Shown here: one piece after another, positions 1 through 59,361 of the stretch
How positions within the stretch are numbered: position 1 is the first letter of the stretch
How the letters are laid out: each line of letters opens with the position of its first letter
From: an uncultured Burkholderiales bacterium
Lineage (GTDB): Bacteria > Vulcanimicrobiota > Xenobia > Xenobiales > JADMJV01
Length of the DNA: 64,000 nt
NCBI GenBank assembly: GCA_964649085.1
Contig: CAZYPN010000014.1
Location: 78-64,077, forward strand
Reading direction: 5' to 3'
Translations under genes and position numbers: made by a program
Notes under the pieces: model-generated
Database searches by the model: none
What the model was told of the DNA's origin: nothing
Seen by the model: the letters and a program-made list of their open reading frames with translations, nothing else

Positions 1-413
1 CCGCGCTGCCGGGCCGAGGCGATGCCCTCGCGCTGGCGCTCCAGGATCAGCGACCGCTCGAACTCGGCCACCGCCCCCAACAGCGACAGCATCAAGCGCG
101 ACATGGGGTTGGCCTCGGCGCCGGCCTCAAAGCACAGGTTCTCGCGCACAAAGCGCACCTCCACCCCCTTGCGGTTCAGCCCCTCCACCACGGCCAGCAG
201 ATCGGCCAGGTTGCGAGCCAGCCGGTCCATCGAGTGGACGAACAGCACGTCGCCGCGCCGCAGATAGCGCTCGGCCTCTTCCCAGGCCGGTCGCTTCAGG
301 TCCTTACCGCTGGCCCGATCCTCGAAGAGCTCGTCCAACGCTAGCCCCTCCAGCTGCCGATCGCTGCGCTGCTCCCAGCTGCTCACCCGGCGGTATCCCA
401 CTCGCTGACCCAT
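1..413 (-). CDS. Small serine recombinase (resolvase/invertase family), N-terminal catalytic domain; C-terminus lies beyond the window start
   Basis: Own translation of the minus strand from ATG 413-411: MGQRVGYRRVSSWEQRSDRQLEGL..DRASGKDLKRPAWEEA..GDVLFVHSMDRLARNLADLL..MSRLMLSLLGAVAEFERSLILERQREGI. It carries the Y-x-R-V-S-x-x-x-Q catalytic-serine motif and the SG..RP, DRLAR and AEFER..I.ER motifs of resolvases/invertases. It is missing from the ORF track because it has no stop inside the window. Confidence 0.85.
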   Translation of the reverse strand, partial: MGQRVGYRRVSSWEQRSDRQLEGLALDELFEDRASGKDLKRPAWEEAERYLRRGDVLFVHSMDRLARNLADLLAVVEGLNRKGVEVRFVRENLCFEAGAEANPMSRLMLSLLGAVAEFERSLILERQREGIASARQR

Positions 414-423
414 CGTGCCTCCC

Positions 424-545
424 GTGTCCAAATAGACTCTTGGACCCTGTTGGACACCTGTCAGAAAACCCATGCCACCCACCCCAGATGGACACAAAAA
501 CCGCCTCGGCCGGGTGTCCAGTTGGGGTATACCCTACATGGACAC
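424..545. promoter_or_regulatory. res-like cluster of inverted TGTCCA/TGGACA half-sites immediately upstream of the recombinase start
   Basis: GTGTCCAA 424-431, TTGGACcC 440-447 (partial), TTGGACAC 450-457, TGGACAC 489-495, GTGTCCA 514-520, TGGACAC 539-545. The pairs 424/457 (34 bp) and 514/545 (32 bp) are inverted repeats with about 18-bp spacers. That is five perfect hexamers within 120 bp. Confidence 0.55.
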
Positions 546-602
546 ACCCAAGAAGTCGGCGGCCCTGCCACCAAGGCCAAGAAAGCTTTCGCATCGGTTT
601 GA

Positions 603-714
603 GGTTGTGGCGTTCAAATCGCCACAATGAGGCACCAAAACGCCACATTCGAGGCTGTCGGGGCGGGTTGTGGCGTTCAAATCGCCACAATGAGGCTCCA
701 AAACGCCACATTCG
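603..714. repeat. Tandem direct repeat: two 49-bp units with a 63-bp period, each containing a hairpin
   Basis: Units 603-651 and 666-714 read GGTTGTGGCGTTCAAATCGCCACAATGAGGC(A/T)CCAAAACGCCACATTCG and match at 48/49 positions. Each unit has TGTGGCG / 7-nt loop / CGCCACA (606-612 with 620-626; 669-675 with 683-689) plus a third CGCCACA (641-647; 704-710). Confidence 0.9.
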
Positions 715-900
715 GCCGGGTGACCAGGACAACTCCCACCGGGCCCGCGCCGCGTAGGGCAGGGCCCCAACGCCCTCGACCGACTGCTCGCCTCCATGGT
801 CGTTGCCCCCAAGGCCGCTAACTCCCAGGTTGACCGGCTGGGTCGACTCACTTCGAGCAGCGACTTGCTGGACCGCGGGGCATTCGCCGACGCTCTGCCG

Positions 901-1327
901 TCAGGTGAACATCCTGACCGGGACAGCTGCTTCTCGCGATAGCCACGACACGCGCCTTGCCTTTTGCCCGGGGGTCGCTAACTCGCTGATGAAAGGGGCG
1001 ATGAGTTGGTAGCGCCAGGCCGCCTCCAGAGGCAACTGCTCCTGCCTCAACTCTCGAAACCAGCGTAGGGCCGATCGAGGGTCTGGACCCGTGACCTCAA
1101 GGGGCAGCCCCGGCTTACCCTGGGCGGCAACTGCCTTGACCACTGTACCAGAACCGCTCGTCCACCTGACGCCGCAGCAGGCGTGGGGTCGACTCCAAGC
1201 CGAACTGAAAGGCATTCCGATGGAAAGAATTCAGAGGGTGGTGTCGCGACATTTGCTCGGAAGTTAAGTGCTGAGCCAGGAATTCTTGGACCTGCTCAAG
1301 CTTTTGCACGACACACAACAGAGACAT
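901..1327 (-). pseudogene. Degenerate frameshifted ORF remnants; possibly an N-terminal HTH fragment of a Mu/TniA/TnsB-type transposase
   Basis: Two overlapping frames (901..1215, 1115..1327) lack a convincing start. The segment ..EAAWRYQLIAPFISELATPGQKARRVSWLSREAAVPVRMFT* loosely resembles the W-R-x-x-L-I-A-P-L ... GVS.RT.YRW N-terminus of DDE transposases and then terminates. The evidence is weak. Confidence 0.25.
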
Positions 1328-1500
1328 CGGGGTAATAAAATCGAGTGTGGCCGGGCAGACGGATTCTTATTTTTGTCTCGGAGTTTAAAGCTCGGCACGG
1401 CTGCCCACTCAGACGACCCCACACTGCGGCGAGGAATGGTTCTGGCTCCACGCATGGCGTAAACCACGCCGCCGAGATACTGCTGTTCCACCCGGAGTAG
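1296..1500 (-). pseudogene. Truncated, frameshifted copy of the Uma2-family endonuclease gene
   Basis: Nucleotides 1308-1376 are identical (69/69) to 2651-2719 inside the intact Uma2 gene. Diverged homology with an internal deletion continues to about 1492. The peptides ..EQQYLGGVVYAMRGA.. and ..GQPCRALNSETKIRIRLPGHTRFYYPDVSVVCR lie in two different frames. Confidence 0.75.
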
Positions 1501-1550
1501 TGTTCACCCACTTCGTGGGGCAGCCCAGGCGAAGCCCACTGCCAGTTTCT

Positions 1551-2198
1551 CTATTCGCGGGGTTGGCCCAGATGGAAACTTGCCTGTCGCCTTTGGCCCA
1601 TCAGGACCATGCAGGTCAACATGACCAGCGTGATGGGCAGGCCACCTGGGGACAGTTCTGGAGCGGGAGTGGGGTCATCGATTTGAAAACTCGGACCGAT
1701 CATTGCGTTCTGGTTGCCGAAGGTGGGTTGGGAGAAAACGGTGGAGGAGCCGTTGTCTACAGTCCCCAGAAAGTTCACGCCGCTTACCGTCGACACGACT
1801 CCGCGGAAGGAGGCGTTGACAGTACCCGAGCCAATGGGTTGGGTGCCAATAGTGTAGGTGCCCGCGGCAAAAGAAGTCGAGCCGGTGAGCGCCGAGGTGA
1901 AACGGAATCCGTCGATCAGCGGATCACTGCTGCCGGCAGCCACGACTCCCTGCAGAACCATGGTGCCCCCGCTGTCCCAAATGGCAACGTTCTGGGCCTG
2001 GGCCATGCCGTCGCCGGCATCATCGAACACACCGAGACTCGTGATGGTTACGTTCTGACTGAGAGAAAAGAGGTAACCCCAGGTAAAGGTGTTGGACGAA
2101 AGTATTCCGCCCGAGACGGTCAATGCTGTAACCGGCACGGCAAAGGTGGCACCGCTGAGCAGCAGCACCACTAGACCTTGCAATAGAAAACTTTTCAT
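1551..2198 (-). CDS. Secreted protein with a PEP-CTERM-like C-terminal sorting signal
   Basis: The start is taken at MKSFLLQGLVVLLLSGATFAVPVTA (signal peptide), with GGGAGGAAG upstream. The C-terminus reads ..DDPTPAPELSPGGLPITLVMLTCMVLMGQRRQ.. (P-E-x, then a TM helix, then a basic cluster). The body motif ITSLGVFDDAGDGMAQAQNVAIWD is typical of PEP-CTERM cargo. Confidence 0.6.
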   Translation of the reverse strand: MKSFLLQGLVVLLLSGATFAVPVTALTVSGGILSSNTFTWGYLFSLSQNVTITSLGVFDDAGDGMAQAQNVAIWDSGGTMVLQGVVAAGSSDPLIDGFRFTSALTGSTSFAAGTYTIGTQPIGSGTVNASFRGVVSTVSGVNFLGTVDNGSSTVFSQPTFGNQNAMIGPSFQIDDPTPAPELSPGGLPITLVMLTCMVLMGQRRQASFHLGQPRE

Positions 2199-2356
2199 CA
2201 GCGGAGAACTTCCTCCCGGTTTTGGCGGCAGCTTCGCAGAGCTTTGGGAACTCCCTCTTTCTGACCGAGATACCTGGCCACTGGGCACTCATGAGATCTT
2301 GCCGACGCGAAAGCTGCGGGTTCTTGCCGAACTGGCCAGCCCGGCCAGCCTCGATC

Positions 2357-2926
2357 TCAGGGAAAATCGACGCCTTCGTAAACCTCACTCAGCGGAAGTT
2401 CCACCCCAATTTCGGCAAGAGACAGGGTGTTTTCGAGTCCCTCCCAAACCTCACGCACAAAGCCTTGATCGCTCCTCCGAAAGCCTACCACCGCAGGTGA
2501 GTCCGGCTCAACTAACAGGTAGATGGCCAGTGAGGGAATAGAGAGATAGGCGTCTTTCTTTTCGCCGAAGTCAATTCTCCGGGTCGAATCCGAAAGAACT
2601 TCCACAATCACGGTGGGCTCATCTTGAAAGACCTGGTCAGGCGGGTTGGGACGACACACAACAGAGACATCGGGGTAATAAAATCGAGTGTGGCCGGGCA
2701 GACGGATTCTTATTTTTGTGTCCGAGTTTAGAGCTCGGCACGGTTGCCCACGCAGACGACTCCATAGTGCGGCGAGGATGTTTGAAGCCACGAGTGTGTG
2801 AATATTTCGGGCTCCGCTCGTGGCGTAAACCACGCCGCCGAGATACTCATGTTTGATCGGGGAATCCAACTCGGCATCGAGATACTCTTGCACGGAGACC
2901 AGATGAAGTTGATTGGCGACGCTCAT
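2357..2926 (-). CDS. Uma2 family (DUF820) putative endonuclease
   Basis: MSVANQLHLVSVQEYLDAELDSPIKHEYLGGVVYATSGA..GQPCRALNSDTKIRI..FYYPDVSVVC..DEPTVIVEVLSDSTRRIDFGEKKDAYLSIPSLAIYLLVEPD. This includes the PD-(D/E)xK-like VEVLS..T motif of the Uma2 family. The ORF extends to 2992, but the family-typical N-terminus begins at the ATG at 2926. Confidence 0.85.
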   Translation of the reverse strand: MSVANQLHLVSVQEYLDAELDSPIKHEYLGGVVYATSGARNIHTLVASNILAALWSRLRGQPCRALNSDTKIRIRLPGHTRFYYPDVSVVCRPNPPDQVFQDEPTVIVEVLSDSTRRIDFGEKKDAYLSIPSLAIYLLVEPDSPAVVGFRRSDQGFVREVWEGLENTLSLAEIGVELPLSEVYEGVDFP

Positions 2927-3040
2927 TTTTCCATCGTATTCGTCAACCGAACCCGACACAAGTTCTCCGGAAATCGTTAAACCCGCGTGCACGGCTCTCG
3001 TGAGGCACTCTGCCGGGTGATGAGCGCAGGCGCTGGCCGC

Positions 3041-3784
3041 CTACTCCTGCAGAAGCCACTTGCTGATCGCACTGCCGACTTCGATGGGGTCGACCTTCAC
3101 GGAGTTGGCTTCTTCACGAGCTTCCTTGACGGCCTTGCGCAGCGCGTCGACGCGCTGCAGCAGCAGACGTCGACGAGGATCGGGCAGCGCGCCCGACATG
3201 TGCAGCTGCGACCAGTAGCCCACCAGCACGTCGTCGTGCACGATTTCGGCCTGGGCAGGGTGGTGCTCCGTGGCTTCGACCTTCATCAGCACGCGCGGCA
3301 CCTTCTTGTGGCGGGCCGTGCGCACCGGTTCGGTGATGTTCAGGCCGGTGGCCTGGTCAGAGCGCCAGGCCTTGCTGGGGTCGAGCACGGGCAGTTTGTC
3401 CACAAACGTGCGGAAGTCTTCCAACTGTTTTTCCAACCAGATGAGATAGGTCACCGGCGCGTCCTTGACCAGAATCTGGCCTTCCACCACCAGGTCGGCC
3501 TTGGCGCGGGTGTTGCCCCAGTCCTTGGTGGCCACCACGTCCAGCAGTTCGCCCCACATGCGAGACCATTGGGCCAGGTTCTCCTGAGCCCGATACTGCA
3601 CCAGCTTTTGCTCCGAGGGCAGATCCTCGCCGTCTTCCGAGCGCCGTTCGTAGGTCCGCGACATGCCGTTGAACAGATCGGGCTTCTGATTGAGCTTGTG
3701 AAGTTCGGCGCCCTCGGAATTGACCCGGGACTTGACCTGCTTTTCCACCGCGATGACCTGGGAGAGTCGTGATTGCTTTGCCAT
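3041..3784 (-). CDS. Conserved hypothetical protein (247 aa); family not assignable by eye
   Basis: Clean 247-aa ORF MAKQSRLSQVIAVEKQVKSRV.. with balanced composition. The antisense ORFs are Arg/Gly/Pro junk. I recognise no motif with certainty. Confidence 0.7.
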   Translation of the reverse strand: MAKQSRLSQVIAVEKQVKSRVNSEGAELHKLNQKPDLFNGMSRTYERRSEDGEDLPSEQKLVQYRAQENLAQWSRMWGELLDVVATKDWGNTRAKADLVVEGQILVKDAPVTYLIWLEKQLEDFRTFVDKLPVLDPSKAWRSDQATGLNITEPVRTARHKKVPRVLMKVEATEHHPAQAEIVHDDVLVGYWSQLHMSGALPDPRRRLLLQRVDALRKAVKEAREEANSVKVDPIEVGSAISKWLLQE

Positions 3785-3798
3785 AGCCTGGCGGTTCG

Positions 3799-4755
3799 CT
3801 ACTTTCCCCTGGGGATCCCCCCGGGGTCCAGCAGGCCTTCCTGCTTGAGCTTCTTGGCGAAAGCGCGGGCCGTCTCCAGGTTGGGATGCCAGGCATCTCC
3901 CGGGGTTTCACCGTGTTCGCCACCGGCCGTGGCCCGTTGCTCCATCAGCGGGGCCAGGTCGAAATGGCGCAGTTGCAATTCCTTCAGCAGCGCCAGCCCC
4001 TGTTGGTGATTCCAGCGCTCGGAGCTATCCCAACGCCGGTAAGGTTTGATATAGGGCAGCATCAGCACCGAGAACTGCACCCCGCTGGCCTCCAGGGCGC
4101 TGTGCAGGCGTTGGAGCTGAGCTCGGACATCCTCGACGCGCTGGCCCTGGCCTCGCTTCCAGCTCAGTCCCAGCAGCAGCCGATAGAGGTGGCTGTGCGA
4201 GAACAGCCAGGCGTTCATCGCCTTGCGTTCCCGATGGGGTATCAGCAGCTGCATATTGCCCTGGGAATCATTGTAGACCAGGGGAGTGGGCAGAAAATCG
4301 TTGGGATGAAAGGTCAGGATCACGTGGTCGGGTTGAATTCGGTGGTTGTGGCGCAGATACAACTCTACTTCCTGAGCCGTATTGAAGCCCTCCACCCCGG
4401 CATTCCAGTATTCCAGGCTCTCGCCGTAGAGTTCCCGCAGGGCTTTGACGATCTGTCCCCGGTGCGTCACCGAGTCGCCGATAAACAGTACGCGCAACTT
4501 TCCCGGCGTCTTCTCACGCGGATACGAGTTGCGCAGGCAGCCGTCGGCGTCGTACTCCGCAGAGTTGAGCCGGGGCAGATAGCCCACCTCGGGGTCGGCG
4601 GCAAAGCTGGAAAGGGTGCCGGCCGCGAAATTCATCGTTTCACCCCCCAGGGTGAACTTCGAGGGAAGCGACATCCGCAGGGCCACTTCGGCAAATATCG
4701 TCCCCCCCAGCAGCCCCAGAGCCAGCATGGCGAGACGCAGCAGGTTGCGTCGCAT
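3799..4755 (-). CDS. SGNH/GDSL-type hydrolase with an N-terminal membrane anchor
   Basis: N-terminal TM MRRNLLRLAMLALGLLGGTIFA. Block I is FIGDSVT, block III is NAGVEGFNT, and there is a C-terminal D..HP (GDAWHPN). Confidence 0.75.
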   Translation of the reverse strand: MRRNLLRLAMLALGLLGGTIFAEVALRMSLPSKFTLGGETMNFAAGTLSSFAADPEVGYLPRLNSAEYDADGCLRNSYPREKTPGKLRVLFIGDSVTHRGQIVKALRELYGESLEYWNAGVEGFNTAQEVELYLRHNHRIQPDHVILTFHPNDFLPTPLVYNDSQGNMQLLIPHRERKAMNAWLFSHSHLYRLLLGLSWKRGQGQRVEDVRAQLQRLHSALEASGVQFSVLMLPYIKPYRRWDSSERWNHQQGLALLKELQLRHFDLAPLMEQRATAGGEHGETPGDAWHPNLETARAFAKKLKQEGLLDPGGIPRGK

Positions 4756-4876
4756 CGTGTCTGCCTCTTCCTCCCGGTCGACAGAGCCTCCTCTGGAAGG
4801 CTCTTGGCCTTTCCTGGATTTCGTGATAGCCTGCAGCCTGCCGGTTTTCCGGACAATGCATCAGGAAAGGAGTCCC

Positions 4877-5236
4877 ATGAAAAAACTGTTACTCGTCGCA
4901 GCCCTGGCCTCGGCCGGCTGGGCAGAAACCGTAGAGTTGCCCAAGGGCGGCTCGATTCCCAAGGGACTGGTTAAGGGCAAGACCAATCTGGTCGAATTTT
5001 ACGCCGATTGGTGAGGGCCCTGTAAGAAAATGGCCCCCAGTTTGGAGGCCTACGCCAATAACGCTGCCAACAAAACGGCGCTGATCAAGATCAACGTGGA
5101 TCAGCACCCCGAACTCTCCGAACAGTTTGGAGTCCGCAGCATCCCCGCGTTCTTCCTCTACGATGCCCAGGGCAAACAAACCCTGTCGGGCAGCGAAGCC
5201 CGCCAGTGGGTGAGCAAGAACGTCCCCATGAAGTAA
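4877..5236 (+). CDS. Secreted thioredoxin-like protein with in-frame TGA (5012-5014) at the first CxxC position; candidate selenoprotein (W-U-G-P-C)
   Basis: Track ORFs ..[34 protein letters not shown] and [37 protein letters not shown] are in the same frame ((5030-4877)/3=51) and are separated only by TGA. The read-through gives [14 protein letters not shown], the canonical Trx WCGPC site. GGAAAGGAG lies upstream of the ATG at 4877, and the N-terminus is a signal peptide. Confidence 0.7.
5032..5050 (+). promoter_or_regulatory. Candidate bacterial SECIS hairpin downstream of the in-frame UGA
   Basis: GGCC(5032-35)/GGCC(5047-50) plus CCA(5037-39)/UGG(5043-45) form a stem around the apical loop G-U-U (5040-42), about 28 nt after the UGA. 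An alternative 5-bp stem is GGGCC 5015-19 with GGCCC 5032-36. Folded by eye only. Confidence 0.35.
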
Positions 5237-5270
5237 GCGATCCTGCCGCCACGCGCCAGGATCCTGGCGC

Positions 5271-6536
5271 GTGCGGAGGAACAGCCTCCGGGTGAGCGAT
5301 CCGGTACCCCCTCGTCAGCGGTCCATCTATCTGGCCGGATCGCGAGGCCAGCTGCCCAAAGTTCCCACCCAGGCCCAGGCGCTGGAAGCCGCCGCGGCCC
5401 GCAGCATGTCAGCCGCCGCCTACGCCTACGTGGCCGGTTCGGCCGGGCTGGAAAGCACCTGTCAGGCCAACCTCCGTGCCTTTGACCGCTACCTTTTGCG
5501 GCCCCGCATGCTGCGCGACGTACGCCAGCGCCAGCTGCAGAGAACCTTCCTGGGCCACACCTACGCCACGCCCCTGCTGACCTGTCCCATCGGCGTGTTG
5601 GAGCTGGCCCATCCCCAGGCCGATCGGGCCGTGGCCCGGGCCTGCGCCGCCCTGGGGGTGCCCATGGTGTTTTCCAATCAGGCCTCGGTCTCCATGGAAG
5701 AGTGCTCGGCCCTGATGGGCGACAGCCCGCGCTGGTTCCAACTCTACTGGAGCAAGTCCGACGAACTGGTGGCCTCGCTGCTGGCGCGAGCCGAGCGCTG
5801 CGGTTGCTCGGCTCTGGTGGTCACCCTCGACACGCCGCTCTTGGGCTATCGTCCTCGCGATCTGGATCTGGGTCACCTGCCCTTCCTGCGCGGGGCGGGC
5901 CTGGCCCAGTACCTCAGCGACCCGGTCTTTCAGGCTTATCTCGATGAGCCCCAACCCCAGGCAGAAAAGCCCCGGCTGTCGCTGCATTCGCTCAAGCTGC
6001 TCTACGATTTGTGTCGCAACTATCCGGGACCGTTTCTGCACAACTTGCGCTCGGGTCGGCCGATTCGGGCGGTGCGCCAGTTTATCGACATCTACGCGCG
6101 AGCCGACCTGACCTGGGAGCGGCTGGCCTGGCTGCGGGGAAAAACCCGCCTGCCCCTGATCCTCAAGGGTGTGCTCACGCCCGAAGACGCCGCTCTGGCT
6201 CGCCAGGCCGGGGTCGACGCGGTGTGGGTTTCCAACCACGGGGGGCGCCAGGTCGACGGGGCGGGCTCCAGCCTGCAGGCGCTGGTCGACATCGCCGAAG
6301 CCGAACCAGAGATGCCCCTGATTTTCGACAGCGGGGTGCGCTGTGGCGCCGACGCTCTCAAGGCCCTGCGGCTGGGAGCCACGCTGGTGGGCGTCGGGCG
6401 CCCCTACGTCTACGGGCTGGCGCTGGCTGGCGAAGCCGGCGTTCGCGAGGTGCTGGAGAACCTTCTGTGCGAGCTGGATTTGCAGATGGCCCTGTGCGGC
6501 GCCACCCGTCCCGAAGACGTCGAGCTGCAGCGTTGA
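5271..6536 (+). CDS. FMN-dependent alpha-hydroxy acid oxidase/dehydrogenase (lactate 2-monooxygenase-like)
   Basis: ..[32 protein letters not shown].. , [46 protein letters not shown] and GRPYVYGLA are the family signature blocks. Confidence 0.85.
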
Positions 6537-8236
6537 GTTTTCTGCTTCAAGGCGGTCGCTACCAGGCCGGAGCCATCCTGGGTCAGGGGGGCAGTTCGCG
6601 GGTCTACGCGGGGCAACACCTGGAGCTGCAACGACCGGTGGCGCTCAAGGGGCTGCACTCGCAGGAACCCGCCGAAATCGAGCTCTTTCGCGAAGAAGCC
6701 CGCCTGCTGGCGGCCCTCACCCATCCACGCATCGTGTCGGTCTACGACTTTTTTGTGGAAGGCAGCCAGGCCTGGATGGTGCTCGAGCAGGTTGTGGGCC
6801 GCACCCTCTATGATCAGGTGCAGCTCGAGCATCCTGTGCCGCTGCAGCGCTGCCTGCAGTGGCTCGACGAGCTGCTGGATTTGCTCGAGTTTCTGCATCA
6901 TCAGCAGCCCCCGGTGATTCTCAAAGATCTCAAGCCCGAGAACGTCATGGTGCGCCAGGATGGTCACCTGGTATTGCTCGACTTCGGCATCGCCAAACGC
7001 CTGACCCCGGTGGGCACGCAGCCTTTGAACAAAGGCATGGGCAGCGAGCACTATGCGCCCCTCGAGCAGTACGGCCAGGGCTCCACCGACCAGCGTTCCG
7101 ACCTCTACGCGCTGGGCTGCACGTTGTTTTACATGCTGACCGGCCAGCAGCCCACGCCGGCCCATCAACGTCTGCGCCACAGCGAGCCCCTGCGTCCCGA
7201 GGCCGGCCGCCCCGAGCTGGATGCGCCCCTGGTCGAGGCCCTGCGCCAGATGACCGCGCTCTTTCCCCAGGACCGCCCACCCCACGTAGCGCGGGTGCGG
7301 CAACTGCTGAAGGAGCGTCCCGCCCCGCGGGGCGACTATCTGCTGCGGCCCCCCCAGATGGCCCAGCCCCGCACGGTCATCGACCGGCCTTCCCCGGAAG
7401 TACGCCGCCTGGGCGAATGGAAGGCGGCGGTACGCCAGGCATTGTTCAGCGCCGAGGGCGAGCTGTGGGCGCTGACCGACCAGGGGTTGCTCAGCTTCAA
7501 ACCCGGACGAGCCCCCAGGAGCCTTTGGAAAGGGGAAGCCGTGGCCATGGCCCTCAGCCCCGAAGGCCGGCGCTGGGCCGTGCTCGGCGCCGATGGCCAG
7601 TGCATCTACTCGAGGCGCGAGCGCGAAGGACGCCTTCGGCTGGAAGGAGCCGAGGGCGCCCGCTGGCTGGCCTGGGGTCCCGATTCCCAGTGGCTCTGCC
7701 TGGCCCAGGCCCAACGGCTGACTTCTCATCAGGGCAGCGACGGCAAACTGCTGCGCACCTTCCCCGCCCAGGGGTGGTGGCAGAGCCTGATGGGCTTTCG
7801 CTTTCTCAGTTGCGCCACCCGGGGCCATTTACTGGTGGCCGGGGGTGGCGACGGCAGCCTGTGGTGCTGGGACGTGCTCAGCGGCCGTCGCCTGTGGCAG
7901 GCCCACCGCCCCGGCCCGGCCCGCTCGCTGGCCATCGACCCCGAAGGGCGACTGTTGGCCAGCTCCAGCGACAGCTCGGGCCTGGCTTTGTGGGAGTTGG
8001 AAAGCGGCCGCAACCTGCAGGAAATCCCCGAACAGGCGGGCTGGCACGGGCTGCACTGGAGCCAGGACGGTCGCACCCTCCTGGGCGGGCTCGAGCGCGA
8101 AGTTCGCCTCTGGGACCTGCCCCGGCAGTCGCTGGCACTCACCCTGACCACGCCCGCGGCCCTGCAAGGCTGCACCTTCGCGGCTTCGCAACTGGCCTTC
8201 TGGAGCGCCGACTCGCTGCAGCTCTGGGAACGTTAA
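6533..8236 (+). CDS. Ser/Thr protein kinase with a C-terminal WD40 beta-propeller
   Basis: Kinase blocks: [40 protein letters not shown]-terminal WD repeats: [10 protein letters not shown].., [12 protein letters not shown].., REVRLWDL. The start is placed at the in-frame TTG at 6533, which overlaps the upstream TGA (TTGA). The upstream part of track ORF 6011.. overlaps the oxidase gene and is rejected. Confidence 0.8.
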
Positions 8237-10967: not shown

Positions 10968-12881
10968 TCATTGGAAATATTGGTTCAGCAGTTGGACGGC
11001 CTGCTGATGTCCCCGTGAGGCTGCCTGTCGCAGGCTGTGCACTGCCTGCTCGTTGTTTCGCTGCTTCAATTCTAACTGGCCCCGAAGGCACCAGGATTGG
11101 GCATCGTCGGGGTCGAGGGCTACGGCACGCGTGAAGGCCTCCCAGGCCTCACCCTCCTGGCCCAGGATCAGCAGCGTATTCCCCAATACTGCCCAGGCCA
11201 GGGCTTGCTCGGGGTCGAGCTCAAGACACCGTCGAAGGGGGGCCAGGGCTTGCTCGAACTGGCCCGCGTCCACGAGGCAGCGGCCCAACCCCAGCCAGCC
11301 GCCCGGATGGCCCGGTTCCAGCTGGGAAGCTCGCTCAAAGTACTTGCGAGACTTCTCTCGGCGCCCTTGCTCCCAGGTGGCTTCGCCCAGATAGAGCCAG
11401 GCCCGGGCGTGATCGGGGTGAAATTCCAGGCACTGGCGGAAACAGTCGGCGGCCCGCCCGAGGTGTTCCTGGTTGAACAGGCACATGCCGTAGCCCACCC
11501 AGAATTCACCCCGTCGCGGAGCCAGCTTCAGAGCCCGCTGGAAACAGCCCGAGGCCTCCTCTAGCTGACCTTTCCCGGCCAGGAACAGCCCCAGATTGTA
11601 CCAGGCCACGGGGTCTCGTTCATCGCTGCTGGTGGCCCGTCGAAAACAGGCCTCGGAGCGAGCATCTCCCAGCCGGGAAAGGTTCATCCCAAGCTCGCTC
11701 CAGGCGTCACTGGAGTCGGCGATGGCCAGAGCCCTGTCACAGGCCGCCTGTGCCTCGGCCGAGCGTCCCAGCCTTCGCAGGCAGCGAGCCCGATTGACCC
11801 AGGCCGCAGCCAGATCGGGTTGCAGAGAGATGGCGCGTTCCAACCAGTAGAGTGCCTCTTGCAGCTTGTCGAGGTTGAGCAGGGTGGCGGCGCGGTTGTT
11901 ACAATCGTGGGCGCTGAGCTGGGGTCCCGTCACCGGCGGGTCCACCGGCCTTCCCGTGGCTTTGGTGTAGAGCTCGGCCAGGCAGGCTCGCACCTGCCGG
12001 AAATCCCCGGGGCGTTGCTCCTTGTCCTTGGCCAGGCAGGCCTGAATCAGATCGTCCAACCGACCGCTCAGCGCATGAGGATGGTCGAGCCGGGGCGGCG
12101 CCTCCATCATGTGCTGATAAGCCAGGTGATACACCTGGCTTCCCGAGAATGGCCGGCGCCCGCTCAGCAATTCGAACAGCATCACTCCGAACGAGTAAAT
12201 GTCGGCACGCACATCCACCGTGGCCGTATCGTGCCATTGCTCGGGAGGCATGTAGGCCAGCGTGCCCATGGCCACTCCGCTTTCGGTCAGTCCGGGTGTG
12301 GCCGCCTGCGAGGGCCGGGTCTGAAGCTCGGCAAGCCAGCGAGCAAAGTCGGGATCGCGCGCGGGTAAGGCCGACTGCACCACTTTGGCCAAACCGAAGT
12401 CGGTGATTTTCAACTGCCAGCCACGGGCATCGATCAGGCAGTTTTGCGGCTTTACGTCGCGGTGGGCGATCAGTCCGCAGGAAGCGGCATGCACCATTCC
12501 GTCGCAAAACTGAAGGCCGAAGCGCAGAGCGGTTTCCAGGGTGAGGCGTTGGCTGCCAACCCACTCGCTCAGGTCGCCCCCTTCCACCCATTCCAGAAAA
12601 AGGCATGGCAGCCCGTTAAGGTTTCGAAAGCTGTCCATGCGCACGATAGAGGGGTGCGTTCCCAACTGATTCCAGAGCTCGGTCTCGACTCGAAACCGCT
12701 CGATCATCGGGGGTTCCACCAGGTTCGGGTCCAGGTAGGTCTTGATGGCCAGTGGGGTTCCATCCTGGGTGTCGATCACCAGATAGACACGTCCAAAGCC
12801 CCCGGCCAGCACGCGCCGCACCTCCCAGCGTTCGTCGATCCGCTCGCCGACCTGAAATTCCCGGGCAACTTCAGGTCGCAT
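10968..12881 (-). CDS. Ser/Thr protein kinase with C-terminal TPR repeats
   Basis: GGFGRVYLV, AIKT, IAHRDVKPQNCLI, ITDFGLAK, YMPPEQ, then about 300 aa of TPR-like repeats (..AWVNRARCLRRLGRSAEAQAACDRALAI..). The start is taken at M44 of the track ORF (MRPEVAREFQVGER..), which overlaps the upstream stop by 11 nt. Confidence 0.8.
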   Translation of the reverse strand: MRPEVAREFQVGERIDERWEVRRVLAGGFGRVYLVIDTQDGTPLAIKTYLDPNLVEPPMIERFRVETELWNQLGTHPSIVRMDSFRNLNGLPCLFLEWVEGGDLSEWVGSQRLTLETALRFGLQFCDGMVHAASCGLIAHRDVKPQNCLIDARGWQLKITDFGLAKVVQSALPARDPDFARWLAELQTRPSQAATPGLTESGVAMGTLAYMPPEQWHDTATVDVRADIYSFGVMLFELLSGRRPFSGSQVYHLAYQHMMEAPPRLDHPHALSGRLDDLIQACLAKDKEQRPGDFRQVRACLAELYTKATGRPVDPPVTGPQLSAHDCNNRAATLLNLDKLQEALYWLERAISLQPDLAAAWVNRARCLRRLGRSAEAQAACDRALAIADSSDAWSELGMNLSRLGDARSEACFRRATSSDERDPVAWYNLGLFLAGKGQLEEASGCFQRALKLAPRRGEFWVGYGMCLFNQEHLGRAADCFRQCLEFHPDHARAWLYLGEATWEQGRREKSRKYFERASQLEPGHPGGWLGLGRCLVDAGQFEQALAPLRRCLELDPEQALAWAVLGNTLLILGQEGEAWEAFTRAVALDPDDAQSWCLRGQLELKQRNNEQAVHSLRQAASRGHQQAVQLLNQYFQ

Positions 12882-24211: not shown

Positions 24212-26083
24212 GTGTTTCCAAAGTTTGCAAACAAAGGCCCCGCGTTGTCCTCGCGACCCTCCACTCCGGTCGCGTCGCCCTCGCGACTGGCGGCGCCCCC
24301 GATAGCTCCCAGCGCCACTCCTCTGGTTCGGCCCACGCCTGCCGCAGCGCCTGCGGCAACGGCGGCCCCAGCAGCGCCCGCAGCCCCCGCGGCCCCGGCA
24401 GCACCTGCGGCCCCCCCAGCACCTGCCACCCCCCCAGCCCGGCCAGCGGCTCCCCTGGCCCAGAACCTTCAGGCTGCTGTAGGTAAGCCCCCGGTTCGCG
24501 TGGCCGGACAGGGCTTTCCCTCCTTCGTTTCGGGCGCAGCGACCCCGAAACCCACTCCGCCCCCGGCGGCGACCTCGGCCGCCCACCTCAATCACCTGTC
24601 TCAGAGCTTGCGTTCGGCGCTCCCCACTCCGCCGCCCACTCAGAATCGTCCCCCCATGGCCCGGCCCGCAGCGACCCGTCCTGCGCCGGCGAACTTGCCC
24701 CCCGCAGTTGGAACCGGTGGGGTCAAAGGGATGCGGGCCCCGGCCCCTGCTCTGCAGCCGCAGGTCCCTGCCGCACCCAGCAAGGCCACTCTGGCTGCTC
24801 CTTCCAGGCTGGTTGCCCTGAAGAGCTTTCGCGATCGTCTACAGCGGGCCCAGGCCAGCGCTGCCCAGGCCCGCAACGCCGTAGTGCTGAAGCCGGCCGT
24901 GGGTCAGTCACAGCCTTCGACCCCCTCCAAGGCTCCCAACCTGCCAGCCTTTCCTCGCCCGGCCCACCGCAACGAACCACCGCGCCTGGAGTCGCCAGGC
25001 AGCGCCACCAAGTTGCTGGCCATGCCAGCCTCCCGGCCCGAGCCCAAGCCCATGGCTGAAGCTCGACCCCAACTGGCGATGGTTCCTCCGCCCCGCCCGG
25101 AAAAGAGCGCAGCCCCTGCGCTGGCCTCGGCTACGTCCGCGCCGGCTCCGGTTTCGAAGGCCAAAGTTCAGGCCCAGGTTCCCAGTGCGGGGGCCCAGCC
25201 CGGCGCAGCGCAGACTACACCGACTCCAGTCCCCACAGCTCGAGTCGAGGTGGTGAAGTCGGAAAAGCCGGCCGCTCCTGTTCCAGCCCGATCGCCCGAA
25301 CCGTCGGTGCCCCAGGCAACTCCGTCGGTTCCGGCTTCGCCCTCGACGATCGCTGGAGCGACGATTACGGCGCGCGGCGACGACGCCATCAAGAGCGCCT
25401 CCGGTTCGGCAACGCGCAAGGACCAGAAGGTTGCTGGCCTGGAAACAGCGGTTGCTCGACCCCTGCACCGCGAGGAGATGCTGCGCGAGATCGCCTCTCC
25501 CTGGACTCGCCCCCAGCCCACCCCGCTGGAGACCCAGACCTCCAGTCAGAGTCAAAGTGAGGGCGGATCGGGTGGGGGCGCCGGCGGTGGCGGCGGTCAC
25601 CACCAGGGCGGATCGGGTGGGGGCTCCGAGGGTGGGGGCCGTGGTCAAAGTGGTGAAGAGATCCAGCTTGAACTCGACTGGCTGGGCGGCGCTGACGATG
25701 CCCTCGCCTTTTCGGTCGAGCTGCGAGACCTGCAGTTTCGTCCCCGTAGCGGCCTGGAGTCGGAGCAAGAGTTGCCAACGACTCGTGCCCGTCGCAACGA
25801 GTCGGATGAGCAGGGCGAGCAGCAATCACCCCCGCGACGCCGTCGGCGTCAGTGGGAAGAGGAAGAAGAGGATCAGCAAGAGCCCGTCGACCAGAGCGAC
25901 TGTGCTCCGGCACGGCTGATCTGTCGGCCAGACTCCGAGTTCGTGGCAGTAGCCCGTCACTGGCTCGCTCGGCCCGAGTTGCGTCATTTCACCCTGATCT
26001 GTCCCGGCGAGGTCTCGTCGATGGGAATCATTCGACTGCGCGACTTCCCTCCGTTCGAGTCAGGCCATCAGCGGGTTGGCTGA
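24212..26083 (+). CDS. Pro/Ala-rich low-complexity protein (623 aa) with a Gly-rich linker and a small C-terminal globular region
   Basis: Longest ORF in the region, with a GTG start. It has a PAAPAAPAAPAAP run (about 24355-24420), then GGSGGGAGGGGGHHQGGSGGGSEGGG, then ..EEIQLELDWLGGADDALAFSVELRDLQF.. and ..FVAVARHWLARPELRHFTLICPGEVSSMGIIRLRDF. No family recognised. High GC makes long ORFs less diagnostic. Confidence 0.5.
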   Translation: MFPKFANKGPALSSRPSTPVASPSRLAAPPIAPSATPLVRPTPAAAPAATAAPAAPAAPAAPAAPAAPPAPATPPARPAAPLAQNLQAAVGKPPVRVAGQGFPSFVSGAATPKPTPPPAATSAAHLNHLSQSLRSALPTPPPTQNRPPMARPAATRPAPANLPPAVGTGGVKGMRAPAPALQPQVPAAPSKATLAAPSRLVALKSFRDRLQRAQASAAQARNAVVLKPAVGQSQPSTPSKAPNLPAFPRPAHRNEPPRLESPGSATKLLAMPASRPEPKPMAEARPQLAMVPPPRPEKSAAPALASATSAPAPVSKAKVQAQVPSAGAQPGAAQTTPTPVPTARVEVVKSEKPAAPVPARSPEPSVPQATPSVPASPSTIAGATITARGDDAIKSASGSATRKDQKVAGLETAVARPLHREEMLREIASPWTRPQPTPLETQTSSQSQSEGGSGGGAGGGGGHHQGGSGGGSEGGGRGQSGEEIQLELDWLGGADDALAFSVELRDLQFRPRSGLESEQELPTTRARRNESDEQGEQQSPPRRRRRQWEEEEEDQQEPVDQSDCAPARLICRPDSEFVAVARHWLARPELRHFTLICPGEVSSMGIIRLRDFPPFESGHQRVG

Positions 26084-46718: not shown

Positions 46719-49142
46719 ATGAAACGTCAGATCGTAGCTCTGGCCCTGGGGGGCTGGCTGTGCCAAGCCGCCCAGGCGGCCCCTTTGCCCTGGGAAAGCC
46801 CGCGCGCTCAAGATGCCTTGAAAGTATTGGCAGCCAGTGGCGTGTTGCAGGAAAACTGGCTATCCTATCGGGTGGCCAGCCGTTGGGAAATTGCCGTATT
46901 GATGCAGCGACTGTTGCAGCGACTGGAGTCGCAGCCGGAGCTGCTGGCCAGCAAGCTCGAGCGTGAGGCCGTGCAAACTCTGGTCGGGGAAGTCCAGGCT
47001 GAACTTCAGGCTCTCGCGCCCCGAGTCGACGGGCTCGAGCAACAGCTGACCGCGCTCGAGCAGCGGGTCGAGTTCCAGGAGCGTTTTCGCTTTCGCGGTC
47101 GTTTTCTGATGGCCGCCCTCTACCAGGGGGTCAACAACACGGGCAACGATCGCAGCGGCCTGGGAATCGGCTCACTCGACTATCAAGGATTGGCAGGTTC
47201 AACCCTGCTGACCAACGGGGTGCCCCACTCCCCCGAGGGCATCGTTCCGCAGCTCGACCTGGCCCGCGGACGCCCGCTGATTCAAGGCACCAGTTTCACT
47301 TCCACCCTCTACCTGGATGTCGAGCACCAGCCCGACGAGGACTGGCTCTACCAATTACGATTCTATGCTTATACCTCGCAAGGAAATTCGTTGCTCGACG
47401 CCACCTGGGGCACTCCTCAGCCCTATCTGGCCAATCCTTTTACCGGCGCTGGCGGTGGCACCCCCCAGGGTTCGAACCGTGCGCCCTTTAGCAGTATGGG
47501 GTTCGACCGTTTTCGCCTGACCCACGTTCCAACGGGATTTGGTTTGACCCTGGGCAGTTTTCATCCCCGCTTGATTTCCAGCCAGGTATTTACCGGTCAG
47601 GTCAACCCTCGGGTGGGAGATCCTCGCCTGCTCGAGAGCTTCGGAGTCCACGCTTCGGCCGAACACGGGCCTTTTGGTTGGGAGGCCTTTGGGACCTACT
47701 TGCCCGACGGGAATCCCGCCCAGTTGGGGCTTCAGCCCCTGCAGCATCTGGCCTGGGGTGGTGCGCTCAGTTATCAGAACAAGGGCTGGCAAGCCACCTT
47801 GAGCCTGCTCCAGGCTTCGGCCAGTTCTCGTGACGGCAACCCTCGGGCCGTGGGCCTGTCTAACCTGGTGAATGGAAGCACGGGTCAGGTAAATGTCAAC
47901 TGGGTGAACCCCAACGGTTTTTTTGCCGGACAGTTGCCTCCGGCGGCCTCGGCCGGCCGTGGCTCAACCAGCGATCGTCGTCCTGTCCCAGGTCGAGCCG
48001 GGCTCGATGGGGGAGGTCGAGAGGCCAGCTTCGGCCCCCAGCAGCAGCTGGGCCTGGGATTGAATGTGAACTATCGAGATCCTGCTGGCTGGGCCGTGTT
48101 GGGCGAATGGGCCCACACCCGATATCGGCCCAGCCAGAACTCCAGCTTTCAACGCGAGGGCAACCTTTGGAGCCTGGGCACTCAGGTGGAACTGGGAGAG
48201 TCGCGGGAGTTTCAACTCCAGCTGGACTATCGCTCGACCGACGCCACCTACGACCCCATGATTCTCGTGTTTCCTTCTCCCAGCTCGTCCCTGGTGCCCT
48301 TTCGTGTCTACCACCGGTTCCCCGATCACGACCAGTTCTGGCATCTTTACTCGCTCCACGACACCGATCGGTTTCCCCATAATCGCAGGGGGTTCTGGCC
48401 TGCCTTCCGCTGGAATTATGGCCCGGACAGCCACCTGGTGTTGCGGGGACGTTGGTTGGAACAGGTGTCAACCTCGTTGCAAGATGTCCGCTTTCAGCCC
48501 GGCCAGCTCGGGGCCAACGTGCCCAACGAGCAGGTGCTGGGGCATTCGCCAGGATTTTTCGACGTGGTGTTTCGAGAGTTTTCACCCCTGTCTTTCAACG
48601 CCCAGCTGCAGCCCCTTGAGAATCCCCGTGGCCGCGTGACGGCACTGGGGTTAGACCTGCATCATCACTTTGAGGACACTCCCTGGACCCTGGACTTTCG
48701 ATTGGAGCGTCATCACTTTCGCCGTCCCACCCGCTTGCCCGCCAGTTTGGGGGGGAGCCAGAACCGGGTGGACCTGGCCCACAGTCTCGCCCATGTAGGA
48801 CTGGAGTACAAACCCAATTCCAGTTGGAGTTACCGATTGAACTACGACGTGGCAGAAATGCGGGGACACTACGACCCGCTCGGAGTGTACAATCCCTTCG
48901 CCATCAGTAATGACCGGGTCGATTTCCTGAATCGCGACCTGCTCCAGCACGCGCCCGGCCTGGAAGCCACCTGGCATCTGGATAGTCAGACCCGTTGGGA
49001 TATGGGCCTGACTTACTATATCAATATCGATCGCGTGCCTCGCTCTGTATTTGCCGGGCTGCCGGGCGGGCCTCAGGCGACCGCTCATCCGTTTTCGTTC
49101 AATGCCGTGCGCTTGGAAACGCGACTCGAAGTCGATTTCTGA
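46719..49142 (+). CDS. Outer-membrane porin-like protein with an N-terminal SLH domain and coiled coil
   Basis: The signal peptide is MKRQIVALALGGWLCQAAQA. The SLH-like block is ..PRAQDALKVLAASGVLQE..YRVASRWEIAVLMQRLL. A coiled coil (..LQALAPRVDGLEQQLTALEQRV..) is followed by about 650 aa rich in alternating aromatic/Gly beta-strand patterns, ending in ..RLETRLEVDF. Confidence 0.7.
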   Translation: MKRQIVALALGGWLCQAAQAAPLPWESPRAQDALKVLAASGVLQENWLSYRVASRWEIAVLMQRLLQRLESQPELLASKLEREAVQTLVGEVQAELQALAPRVDGLEQQLTALEQRVEFQERFRFRGRFLMAALYQGVNNTGNDRSGLGIGSLDYQGLAGSTLLTNGVPHSPEGIVPQLDLARGRPLIQGTSFTSTLYLDVEHQPDEDWLYQLRFYAYTSQGNSLLDATWGTPQPYLANPFTGAGGGTPQGSNRAPFSSMGFDRFRLTHVPTGFGLTLGSFHPRLISSQVFTGQVNPRVGDPRLLESFGVHASAEHGPFGWEAFGTYLPDGNPAQLGLQPLQHLAWGGALSYQNKGWQATLSLLQASASSRDGNPRAVGLSNLVNGSTGQVNVNWVNPNGFFAGQLPPAASAGRGSTSDRRPVPGRAGLDGGGREASFGPQQQLGLGLNVNYRDPAGWAVLGEWAHTRYRPSQNSSFQREGNLWSLGTQVELGESREFQLQLDYRSTDATYDPMILVFPSPSSSLVPFRVYHRFPDHDQFWHLYSLHDTDRFPHNRRGFWPAFRWNYGPDSHLVLRGRWLEQVSTSLQDVRFQPGQLGANVPNEQVLGHSPGFFDVVFREFSPLSFNAQLQPLENPRGRVTALGLDLHHHFEDTPWTLDFRLERHHFRRPTRLPASLGGSQNRVDLAHSLAHVGLEYKPNSSWSYRLNYDVAEMRGHYDPLGVYNPFAISNDRVDFLNRDLLQHAPGLEATWHLDSQTRWDMGLTYYINIDRVPRSVFAGLPGGPQATAHPFSFNAVRLETRLEVDF

Positions 49143-58374: not shown

Positions 58375-59352
58375 ATGTTGAAGCTAGGTGAGGCACAACC
58401 AACTCTGGTAGGGGAGAACATCGTGCTGTTCTCCGGTACCTCCAACCCGAGGCTGGCTCAGGCCATTGCCGACTACCTTGAAGTTCCGCTGGGTTCGGCT
58501 CTGGTGGGCACCTTTACCAACGGCGAGACCCGCGTCCAGATCGAGGAGAACGTGCGAGGGGCCGAGGTCTTCGTCGTTCAGCCCACCTGTGGCAACGTCA
58601 ACGAGACTCTCATGGAGTTGTTGATTATGATCGACGCACTCCACCGGTCCTCGGCCAAGACGATCACGGCTATCATTCCCTACTACGGCTACGCGCGTCA
58701 GGAGAAAAAGACGGCCGGACGCGAGCCCATTACGGCCAAGCTGGTCGCCAATCTCATCACGGTGGCCGGGGCCGACCGGGTGGTGACCATCGACCTGCAC
58801 GCCGCGGCCATTCAGGGTTTCTTCGATATTCCCGTGGACAACATGATGGCTCTCCCCATCCTGGTAGAGTATTTCCTTCGCAAGGGTTTCGACTCGAGCC
58901 AGCTGGTGGTGGCCTCGCCCGATGCGGGCGGGGTGAATCGGGCCCGCTTGTTCGCCGAGCGCCTGAATGCCGGGCTGGCCATTATCTTCAAGCGCCGGCC
59001 CGAACCCGACAAGGCGGAAGTGATCGACGTGGTCGGCGACGTCCGCGGCAAGACGGTCATCGTGGTCGACGACATCATCTCCACCGGACGCACCCTGATC
59101 CGAGGGGTGGAAACCATGCTGGCTCGAGGCGCGACCCGCTGTTTCGCGGCCGCCACTCACGCCATCATGGCCGCAGAGGCGATCGAAATGATCAATCAAT
59201 CGCCGCTGGAAGAGGTGGTCGTCACCGATACGATTCCCCTTCCCACCGTGGCTCATCGCGGCAAGATCACGACCCTGTCGGTGGCGCCCCTGCTCGGCGA
59301 AGCCATTCGGCGCAACTACTTCCATCTTTCGGTCAGCAAACTTTTCGCCTGA
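58375..59352 (+). CDS. prs: Ribose-phosphate pyrophosphokinase
   Basis: ..[66 protein letters not shown]. Confidence 0.95.
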
Positions 59353-59361
59353 GGAGGGCTT

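Follow-up and report, generated by a model that had tools for sequence, protein, structure and literature searches.

A predicted exported thioredoxin gene of the Vulcanimicrobiota, split in databases at an in-frame TGA, very probably encodes a selenoprotein

The 64-kb stretch of DNA analyzed here, referred to below as the window, contains two short open reading frames on the forward strand that share one frame and are separated by a single TGA. The question raised by this locus is whether the TGA ends a gene or specifies selenocysteine (Sec) within a longer one. A preliminary description of the sequence favored the second reading, in which the joined product is a secreted thioredoxin with a W-U-G-P-C active site. 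Reading of the frame bears out the arrangement of the two ORFs: the frame runs on the plus strand from the ATG at 4877 to the TAA at 5234-5236, a total of 119 codons, and the TGA at 5012-5014 is its sole interruption. The good ribosome binding site attributed to the gene is also present, with AGGAAAGGAG at 4863-4872 on the plus strand, as read from the sequence, lying 4 nt 5' of the ATG and retaining its purine-rich core across orthologues. Just 3' of the stop codon is a perfect 24-nt palindrome, CACGCGCCAGGATCCTGGCGCGTG (5250-5273, plus strand), which likely forms a hairpin at the end of the transcript. It lacks a U tract, and for want of a T run it was passed over by the terminator scan. Several RNA contigs end at 5240-5279, near this palindrome.

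Gene callers divide this frame in two. In every contig carrying the fragments, their products are a 45-residue ORF, the TGA, 15 nt of intervening sequence and then a fragment of 66-68 residues, and no fewer than 17 contigs in the databases show this split. The nearest three proteins there, at 97%, 84% and 70% identity, are each a C-terminal fragment of 66-68 residues. The expectation that standard callers would split the gene thus describes the public records as they stand, in which the copies are annotated as 45- and 68-residue pieces.

When Cys is placed at the TGA, the translation matches the Pfam Thioredoxin family (PF00085) with 75.1 bits against a gathering cut-off of 23.5, over residues 35-107 and profile positions 19-92 of 103. 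Solved thioredoxins are matched with the same substitution, e.g. 1NW2 at E=5e-18, in an alignment that crosses the WCGPC motif; these Pfam and PDB sequence matches are the basis of the fold assignment. The active-site codons TGG TGA GGG CCC TGT (5009-5023, plus strand) encode W45-U46-G47-P48-C49, with the UGA at 5012-5014 as residue 46. Aligned with 33 Cys homologues, the TGA lies in a column that is Cys in every one of them, and W45, G47, P48, C49 and the cis-Pro P90 (in I-P-A) are invariant as well. The TGA therefore falls exactly on the catalytic Cys of a thioredoxin fold, as had been claimed, and the column holds either Cys (33 homologues) or TGA (7 distinct orthologues). As judged from the sequence, a complete thioredoxin domain arises only with the UGA read through. 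The TrxA equivalog model of NCBIfam (TIGR01068) scores 74.9 bits, under its cut-off of 96.8, and the other TrxA and TrxC models score 57-59 bits against cut-offs of 125-138. The TIGR01068 score below cut-off indicates a thioredoxin-family protein that is not a canonical TrxA equivalog.

The first 16 codons (4877-4924, plus strand) encode a predicted signal peptide for the Sec export pathway. By inspection, the N-terminus has a K2K3 n-region, a hydrophobic stretch from L4 to A13 and small residues at -3 and -1, with G-W-A followed by E17 and cleavage expected after A16 (A-G-W-A / E). The secretion proposed in the preliminary description is consistent with these n-, h- and c-regions and the predicted signal peptidase I site. 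Distant orthologues keep an N-terminus of the same character (LLLLAIPAMA|QVV) in different letters.

We asked whether the TGA itself is genuine. The letter A at 5014, singled out for checking by the preliminary description, is borne out by DNA contigs of 8 runs, each from a different study; these contigs show no letter other than TGA at 5012-5014 and do show true polymorphisms at 4903, 4904 and 5179. Metatranscriptome contigs from 4 RNA runs of 4 studies agree, passing through the TGA unchanged and giving no sign of RNA editing at this codon. One RNA contig of 396 nt, at depth 72, covers 4849-5243, and further contigs covering 4763-5217 and 4852-5167 both cross the TGA. RNA contigs spanning both halves indicate that the gene is transcribed as one short RNA of approximately 4850-5245. 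The TGA is likewise without variant in all orthologous loci. Elsewhere in the window TGA is the commonest ordinary stop, ending 16 of 27 Pfam-supported genes, including the one that stops at 6534-6536; the codon is thus not globally reassigned, in keeping with the original claim. Among 16 same-frame TGA junctions checked in the window for other selenoprotein genes, only 5012-5014 has a redox motif or credible coding on both sides. The junction at 59350 was considered as a recoded TGA and rejected, being the boundary between the prs and pgi genes.

Seven distinct orthologues, with protein identities of 60-98%, all retain the TGA; the more distant L107, L117 and L166 came from a metagenome scan. 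The orthologues occupy four unrelated neighborhoods: DUF7873 with FMN_dh (an FMN-dependent dehydrogenase), Amidoligase_2, MarC, and DUF711 with MutS2. Since these neighborhoods differ, their comparison yielded no conserved operon partner. On either side of the TGA, pairwise dN/dS lies between 0.08 and 0.18, at a dS of about 1 and up to about 1.3. No disabling mutations of the kind expected of a pseudogene were found in the homologous loci, and both halves of the gene are under purifying selection. A scan of a genome collection for the EFYADWC pattern, in which the codon is TGY, returned among the matches listed only Cys thioredoxins of at most 52% identity (Verrucomicrobiaceae and cyanobacteria); the window's own genome was not among these matches. 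These results support translation across the full coding sequence at 4877-5236 on the plus strand as a 119-residue precursor, which we annotate as a thioredoxin-family selenoprotein from its translation through the TGA, the Pfam and PDB thioredoxin matches, the dN/dS values and the RNA contigs.

Decoding of UGA as Sec in bacteria calls for a downstream SECIS hairpin, and a hairpin with a GUU loop had been placed at 5032-5050, about 28 nt past the UGA. Its geometry is as described. The sequence GGCCcCCA-GUU-UGGaGGCC (plus strand) pairs 5032-5035 with 5047-5050 and 5037-5039 with 5043-5045, for 7 pairs in total, around a C5036.A5046 mismatch in mid-stem. The apical loop consists of G5040, U5041 and U5042 and lies 25 nt after the UGA, or 28 nt counted from the U of the UGA, and the hairpin folded alone has an energy of -9.2 kcal/mol. 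The bacterial SECIS (bSECIS) model, which follows the Zhang and Gladyshev consensus as quoted in PMC13188914, describes a loop of 3-9 nt on a stem of at least 4 bp, with a G at loop position 1 or 2, a distance of 16-37 nt from the UGA and a minimum free energy (MFE) of -7.5 kcal/mol or lower. The hairpin at 5032-5050 lies within all of these published limits (loop GUU, 7 pairs, 25 nt, -9.2 kcal/mol). Applied as a test, the same criteria were passed by 29 of 65 Sec sequences versus 18 of 28 Cys-thioredoxin controls, and with so many Cys controls passing they are useless as a discriminator. The energy cut-off is failed by AT-rich marine SECIS elements and passed by GC-rich Cys genes.

Folding of 5012-5075 was proposed in the preliminary description as a check on the hairpin. 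The MFE fold of the free RNA pairs 5015-5019 with 5032-5036 and does not contain the hairpin at 5032-5050; the pair probability is about 0.92 for the competitor versus about 0.07 for the hairpin. When the first 12-18 nt past the UGA are excluded as the ribosome footprint, the hairpin at 5032-5050 is the MFE fold. The region 5012-5075 is no more stable than shuffled sequences (z = -0.43). Given this value and the competing free fold, folding alone proves nothing, and the support for the hairpin is comparative. The competing pairing was rejected as a functional fold, as it is broken in one orthologue (GGG to GGA in L011) and lies inside the stretch covered by the ribosome.

The comparative evidence begins with the orthologues themselves. 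None of them differs at any of the 23 nt of 5030-5052, and the six codons of the hairpin, which encode A-P-S-L-E-A, show zero synonymous change across the 7 orthologues. Among degenerate codons whose amino acid is invariant, only 1 of 7 varies synonymously in codons +5 to +13 versus 27 of 34 elsewhere (p=0.002 by Fisher's test); the lone variant in this interval, a Tyr codon, is not part of the stem. Sharing of this 30-nt hairpin stretch by two diverged orthologues breaks the assembly graph of one metagenome at precisely that point.

A wider comparison was drawn from a metagenome pattern scan that returned 76 loci, 74 of them real FYADW-U-GPC thioredoxin-like genes of several subfamilies. The generic criteria were replaced by a position-and-loop test, which asks for a hairpin stem of 5 bp or more and for G[G/U] in a loop whose start lies 20-27 nt past the UGA. 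Of the 65 distinct FYADW-U-GPC genes, 49 have such a hairpin; among Cys homologues that share the motif the figure is 5 of 28, and among codon-shuffled controls it is 10%. The stems themselves differ among Sec-thioredoxin subfamilies (UUGAGC/GCUCAA; UUUAGU/ACUAGA versus UUUAAC/GUUAGA). Covariation was measured in an ungapped, codon-register alignment of the window family with a soil subfamily, EFYADW-U-GPCK.FAPVF. Helix columns 20-26 and 34-40 are paired in 93% of cases, compared to 30-59% for slid controls, with compensatory changes at two helix pairs (UA/GC/CG and GC/CG/UA) and conservation of the C.A mismatch. The covariation score was reached by 0 of 500 shuffles, a figure to be read in light of the structure having been derived from these same sequences. 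As the hairpin is invariant within the orthologue group, the covariation comes only from the sister soil subfamily. Synonymous-site suppression and register-matched covariation thus discriminate the SECIS, while the generic bSECIS criteria do not.

These observations bear on several other explanations for the locus. The TGA might be a sequencing or assembly error in the record, and this is the least credible of the alternatives, with next to no weight in our assessment: the codon appears in contigs of 8 DNA runs from 8 studies and in RNA contigs of 4 studies, which do show the variants at 4903, 4904 and 5179, and the same split recurs in at least 17 database contigs. A true TGA could have arisen by a nonsense mutation of TGC or TGT at the active-site Cys, leaving a dead thioredoxin gene. 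This would take one base change, and the databases annotate only the 45- and 68-residue fragments. We consider such a pseudogene highly improbable, given that 7 distinct orthologues share the TGA at a dS of about 1 in four genomic contexts, that dN/dS downstream of the stop is 0.08-0.18, that zero frameshifts or second stops occur in the orthologues, and that a transcriptome contig at depth 72 covers the gene. Equally little probability is assigned to two separate small genes, the first for a secreted peptide of 45 residues and the second, from the ATG at 5030, for a protein of 68 residues, with the hairpin serving as a regulatory element or a minus-strand terminator. These are exactly the two genes that callers predict, and on the minus strand 5050-5032, with a T-rich tail behind it, was picked up in the terminator scan. 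Neither piece is a viable thioredoxin fold, however, since the 45-residue part stops one residue before the redox center and the 68-residue part is without it. The 15 nt between the pieces encode an invariant, in-frame G-P-C-K, the ATG at 5030 has no strong ribosome binding site, and no minus-strand gene terminates at 5050.

A single gene read through the UGA could still carry a standard amino acid (Cys, Trp or Arg) at position 46, inserted by near-cognate read-through or a suppressor tRNA while the hairpin merely slows termination. Downstream hairpins stimulate stop-codon read-through in other systems, which gives this explanation a precedent, and the Sec machinery was not found within the 64-kb window. 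Even so, we judge it unlikely, although less so than the preceding three. The position of the codon exactly on the catalytic Cys is the signature of a Sec/Cys pair, and the hairpin has the G-U loop and spacing of a bacterial SECIS, a design present in 49 of 65 UGA thioredoxins and rare in Cys forms. A lineage needing Cys at this position could also use UGC or UGU, as in thousands of homologues. Decoding of the UGA as Sec in a thioredoxin-family gene is thus the reading we hold with high confidence. The W-U-G-P-C interpretation of the preliminary description is supported by the homologue column, the conserved TGA, the dN/dS values, the contigs and the constraint on the hairpin, and the locus is, with high probability, a genuine selenoprotein gene of an ordinary kind, encoding a small thioredoxin of predicted export and mis-split by gene callers.

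The preliminary description had also noted that no selA, selB, selD or selC gene is present in the window, and our scans agree. Neither ARAGORN nor Rfam found a tRNA-Sec (selC) in the 64 kb, and Pfam scans of 40 ORFs in the window found no SelA, SelB or SelD. Two ARAGORN predictions were discarded as false positives: a "tRNA-Leu" at 11974-12066, which lies inside a kinase ORF and in which Rfam sees no tRNA, and a 95-nt "tRNA-Gly(tcc)" in the orthologous loci L001 and L008, which has no Rfam tRNA and in L001 corresponds to a 26-nt palindrome. Our literature search found no paper linking Vulcanimicrobiota (Eremiobacterota, WPS-2) with selenocysteine. From the gene itself, we infer that the host would have the capacity to decode Sec.

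A mechanism for expression of the gene can be proposed by analogy to the E. coli fdhF paradigm. Translation would start at the AUG at 4877 and proceed until the UGA at 5012-5014 occupies the A site, where the first 12-15 downstream nt would lie inside the ribosome. With these nt inside the ribosome, the competing 5' pairing could not form. The hairpin at 5032-5050 would sit where the mRNA enters, its G-U apical loop 25 nt beyond the UGA. There it may bind SelB-GTP-Sec-tRNA(Sec), as in the fdhF system, allowing Sec to be inserted as residue 46. The ribosome would subsequently melt the hairpin, whose bases also code for A-P-S-L-E-A, and end at the TAA at 5234. The 119-residue precursor is predicted to be exported via the Sec translocon and cut after Ala16, so that the mature thioredoxin would have about 103 residues and a redox center of U-G-P-C. 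The U46 selenolate would be expected to attack substrate disulfides (or sulfenates), with C49 resolving the mixed selenenylsulfide, and the oxidized protein might regain its electrons through a DsbD/CcdA-type conduit in the membrane. Pfam scans of the window ORFs found no DsbD/CcdA-type partner or cytochrome-maturation genes nearby.

Thioredoxins (PF00085) with a UxxC site are listed among the characterized prokaryotic selenoproteins, including the experimentally studied Treponema denticola Trx (PMC13188914). From the Sargasso Sea, 11 sequences of UXXC thioredoxin selenoproteins were reported (PMC1088965), and in the GOS selenoproteome the "Trx-like 1" family (COG0526, UxxC) was the third most abundant, with 321 sequences (PMC2398784). 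The window gene resembles these UxxC thioredoxins of T. denticola, the Sargasso Sea ("Trx") and GOS ("Trx-like 1") in its fold and Pfam family, in the use of Sec for the first, attacking Cys of WCGPC, in the small G-U-loop hairpin within the coding sequence after the UGA, and in having widespread Cys homologues. In contrast to them, the window subfamily has a predicted signal peptide, a short C-terminus and a score below the TrxA equivalog cut-off; the known examples come from spirochaetes, deltaproteobacteria and marine plankton, whereas this gene comes from Vulcanimicrobiota in sludge.

The hairpin shares with E. coli fdhF and the bSECIS model a stem-loop within the ORF and a 3-nt apical loop that opens with G-U, 25 nt after the UGA. 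Its sequence is unrelated to that of the fdhF SECIS, its conserved mid-stem C.A mismatch is a further difference, and its binding by SelB is putative. The stem of the fdhF SECIS has a bulged U. The soil and freshwater EFYADW-U-GPCK-FAPVF[DE]A subfamily (L099, L100, L108, L112, L151 and others) has the same UGA context, helix register and C.A mismatch and a G-U-containing loop. Members of this subfamily differ from the window gene in carrying an N-terminal extension of 100-250 residues and a 7-nt loop, and thioredoxin-domain identity is only about 35-40%.

Among Cys-containing proteins, the secreted homologues P0005 and P0008, metagenomic proteins annotated as "thiol-disulfide isomerase/thioredoxin", have a signal peptide, as is predicted for the window protein, and share its "LVKGKT..FDFYADWCGPCK" core and short C-terminus, with 41-48% identity over 73-91% of the query. 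Unlike the window gene, both carry Cys at the first active-site position, and they are not orthologues. The TlpA/ResA/DsbE group, which is reduced by DsbD/CcdA, likewise combines export (predicted here) with a thioredoxin fold and a CxxC-type center, and its members are likely functional analogues with respect to the reduction pathway. NCBIfam matches to this group are weak, however, at 28-33 bits against cut-offs of 123-230, and the WCGPC motif of the window protein is of the cytoplasmic thioredoxin type.

At 91% identity, the Prs protein of the window matches the one from a "Candidatus Eremiobacteraeota bacterium" MAG. In clusters of at least 90% identity built around Prs and a YbjN-domain protein, the only named members are Eremiobacteraeota, Vulcanimicrobiota or an unclassified "bacterium"; Vulcanimicrobiota is the current name of the phylum (Eremiobacterota, WPS-2). 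The sequence is present in metagenomes and metatranscriptomes of bioreactors, activated sludge and wastewater.

Taken together, the data place this locus within an established selenoprotein family. The UxxC thioredoxins have been known for about twenty years and are among the commonest selenoproteins, and no new mechanism is involved here. Particular to the window gene are its predicted signal peptide, its host phylum and a SECIS conserved base for base with a C.A mismatch. A broader reading would take the locus as the first evidence of Sec decoding in Vulcanimicrobiota, through an exported Sec-thioredoxin well expressed in wastewater bioreactors, and would treat the SECIS with an A-G-U-U loop and C.A mismatch, shared with the soil subfamily, as a distinct SECIS subclass that travels with the FYADW-U-GPC module. 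We offer this joint reading tentatively and regard it as rather doubtful as a whole. As a worked example the locus is a clean one, in which generic bSECIS criteria fail to discriminate and comparative tests succeed. With the public copies split into 45- and 68-residue "hypothetical" ORFs, the protein is invisible to functional surveys of the phylum, and annotation currently misses a very probable selenoprotein in a poorly known group that is common in activated sludge. The presence of the gene would imply that these bacteria need selenium and run a Sec pathway, and it points to a highly reactive extracytoplasmic reductant that may operate in their envelope.

In run X1, a sludge metagenome among the DNA runs whose contigs cover the selenoprotein locus, we examined positions 5000-5058 of the window and found a break in the assembly at 5029-5058. 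In a 104-nt contig from the same run, the invariant SECIS stretch is linked to upstream sequence from a more distant orthologue (VSGKTTIVEF...). Taken together, the break and the joining contig indicate that two diverged orthologues were present in one sample, with the 30-nt SECIS exactly common to both.

Downstream of the thioredoxin stop codon, a perfect 24-nt palindrome (CACGCGCCAGGATCCTGGCGCGTG, 5250-5273) precedes the FMN-dependent dehydrogenase gene, and the ends of RNA contigs tend to fall around it. The palindrome was missing from the terminator-scan list because it lacks a T tract. On the other side, the thioredoxin gene is transcribed divergently from an adjoining minus-strand ORF of 318 residues (3799-4755), which had no Pfam match. 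In its product a GDS(L)-like motif, 'FIGDSVT', accompanies a signal or anchor sequence, and the protein is conserved beside the thioredoxin gene only in the closest relatives. Plus-strand ORFs of 807 residues (46719-49142) and 623 residues (24212-26083) were likewise without a Pfam match. A scan against NCBIfam, which covered the 318- and 807-residue ORFs, returned no match for the former and only a sub-threshold match to an iron-uptake porin model for the latter.

Farther left, beyond the DUF7873 gene, minus-strand ORFs encode a serine recombinase (Resolvase, 3-497) and a Uma2-family endonuclease (2357-2992). When window positions 1-3000 were compared with positions 1-8000 of the related contig L001, a BatA/VWA/DUF58/ABC cluster was found at the corresponding place, as it was throughout the 90%-identical relatives L001-L007. 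By this comparison the Resolvase/Uma2 segment, ~2 kb from the selenoprotein gene, is a replacement specific to the strain and possibly represents a mobile element.

Oversized tRNA calls were made by ARAGORN in the window (a 93-nt 'tRNA-Leu(aag)' at 11974-12066, minus strand, inside a TPR/Ser-Thr kinase ORF) and in plus-strand intergenic gaps of the related contigs L001 (18364-18458) and L008 (9780-9874), both as a 95-nt 'tRNA-Gly(tcc)'. Rfam detected no tRNA at any of these sites, and the core of the L001 site is a perfect 26-nt palindrome (CCTCGCGCCGCTCGAGCGGCGCGAGG); the calls are probably false positives. The TGA scan also raised prs and pgi as a read-through candidate, the two lying in the same frame with a TGA and 9 nt between them (59350-59364). 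They are two ordinary neighbouring genes: full-length Pfam matches were obtained for both, and gene calls in related contigs keep them apart.

Among other metagenome contigs, a 1.1-kb soil contig (L134; positions 51-74 and 736-759, minus strand) carries two tandem thioredoxin-like genes, each with FYADW-U-GPC and the same hairpin type; the pair looks like a duplicated selenoprotein gene. Marine contigs L097, L098, L101, L113, L116 and L150 form a subfamily, 'YFYADW-U-GPCKMLDA', whose N-termini are lipoprotein-like (LFSC, FGC) and some of whose members have long C-terminal extensions of 290-460 residues. No hairpin in these six contigs passed either SECIS test applied, and the SECIS of this subfamily may be of another type or lie elsewhere.
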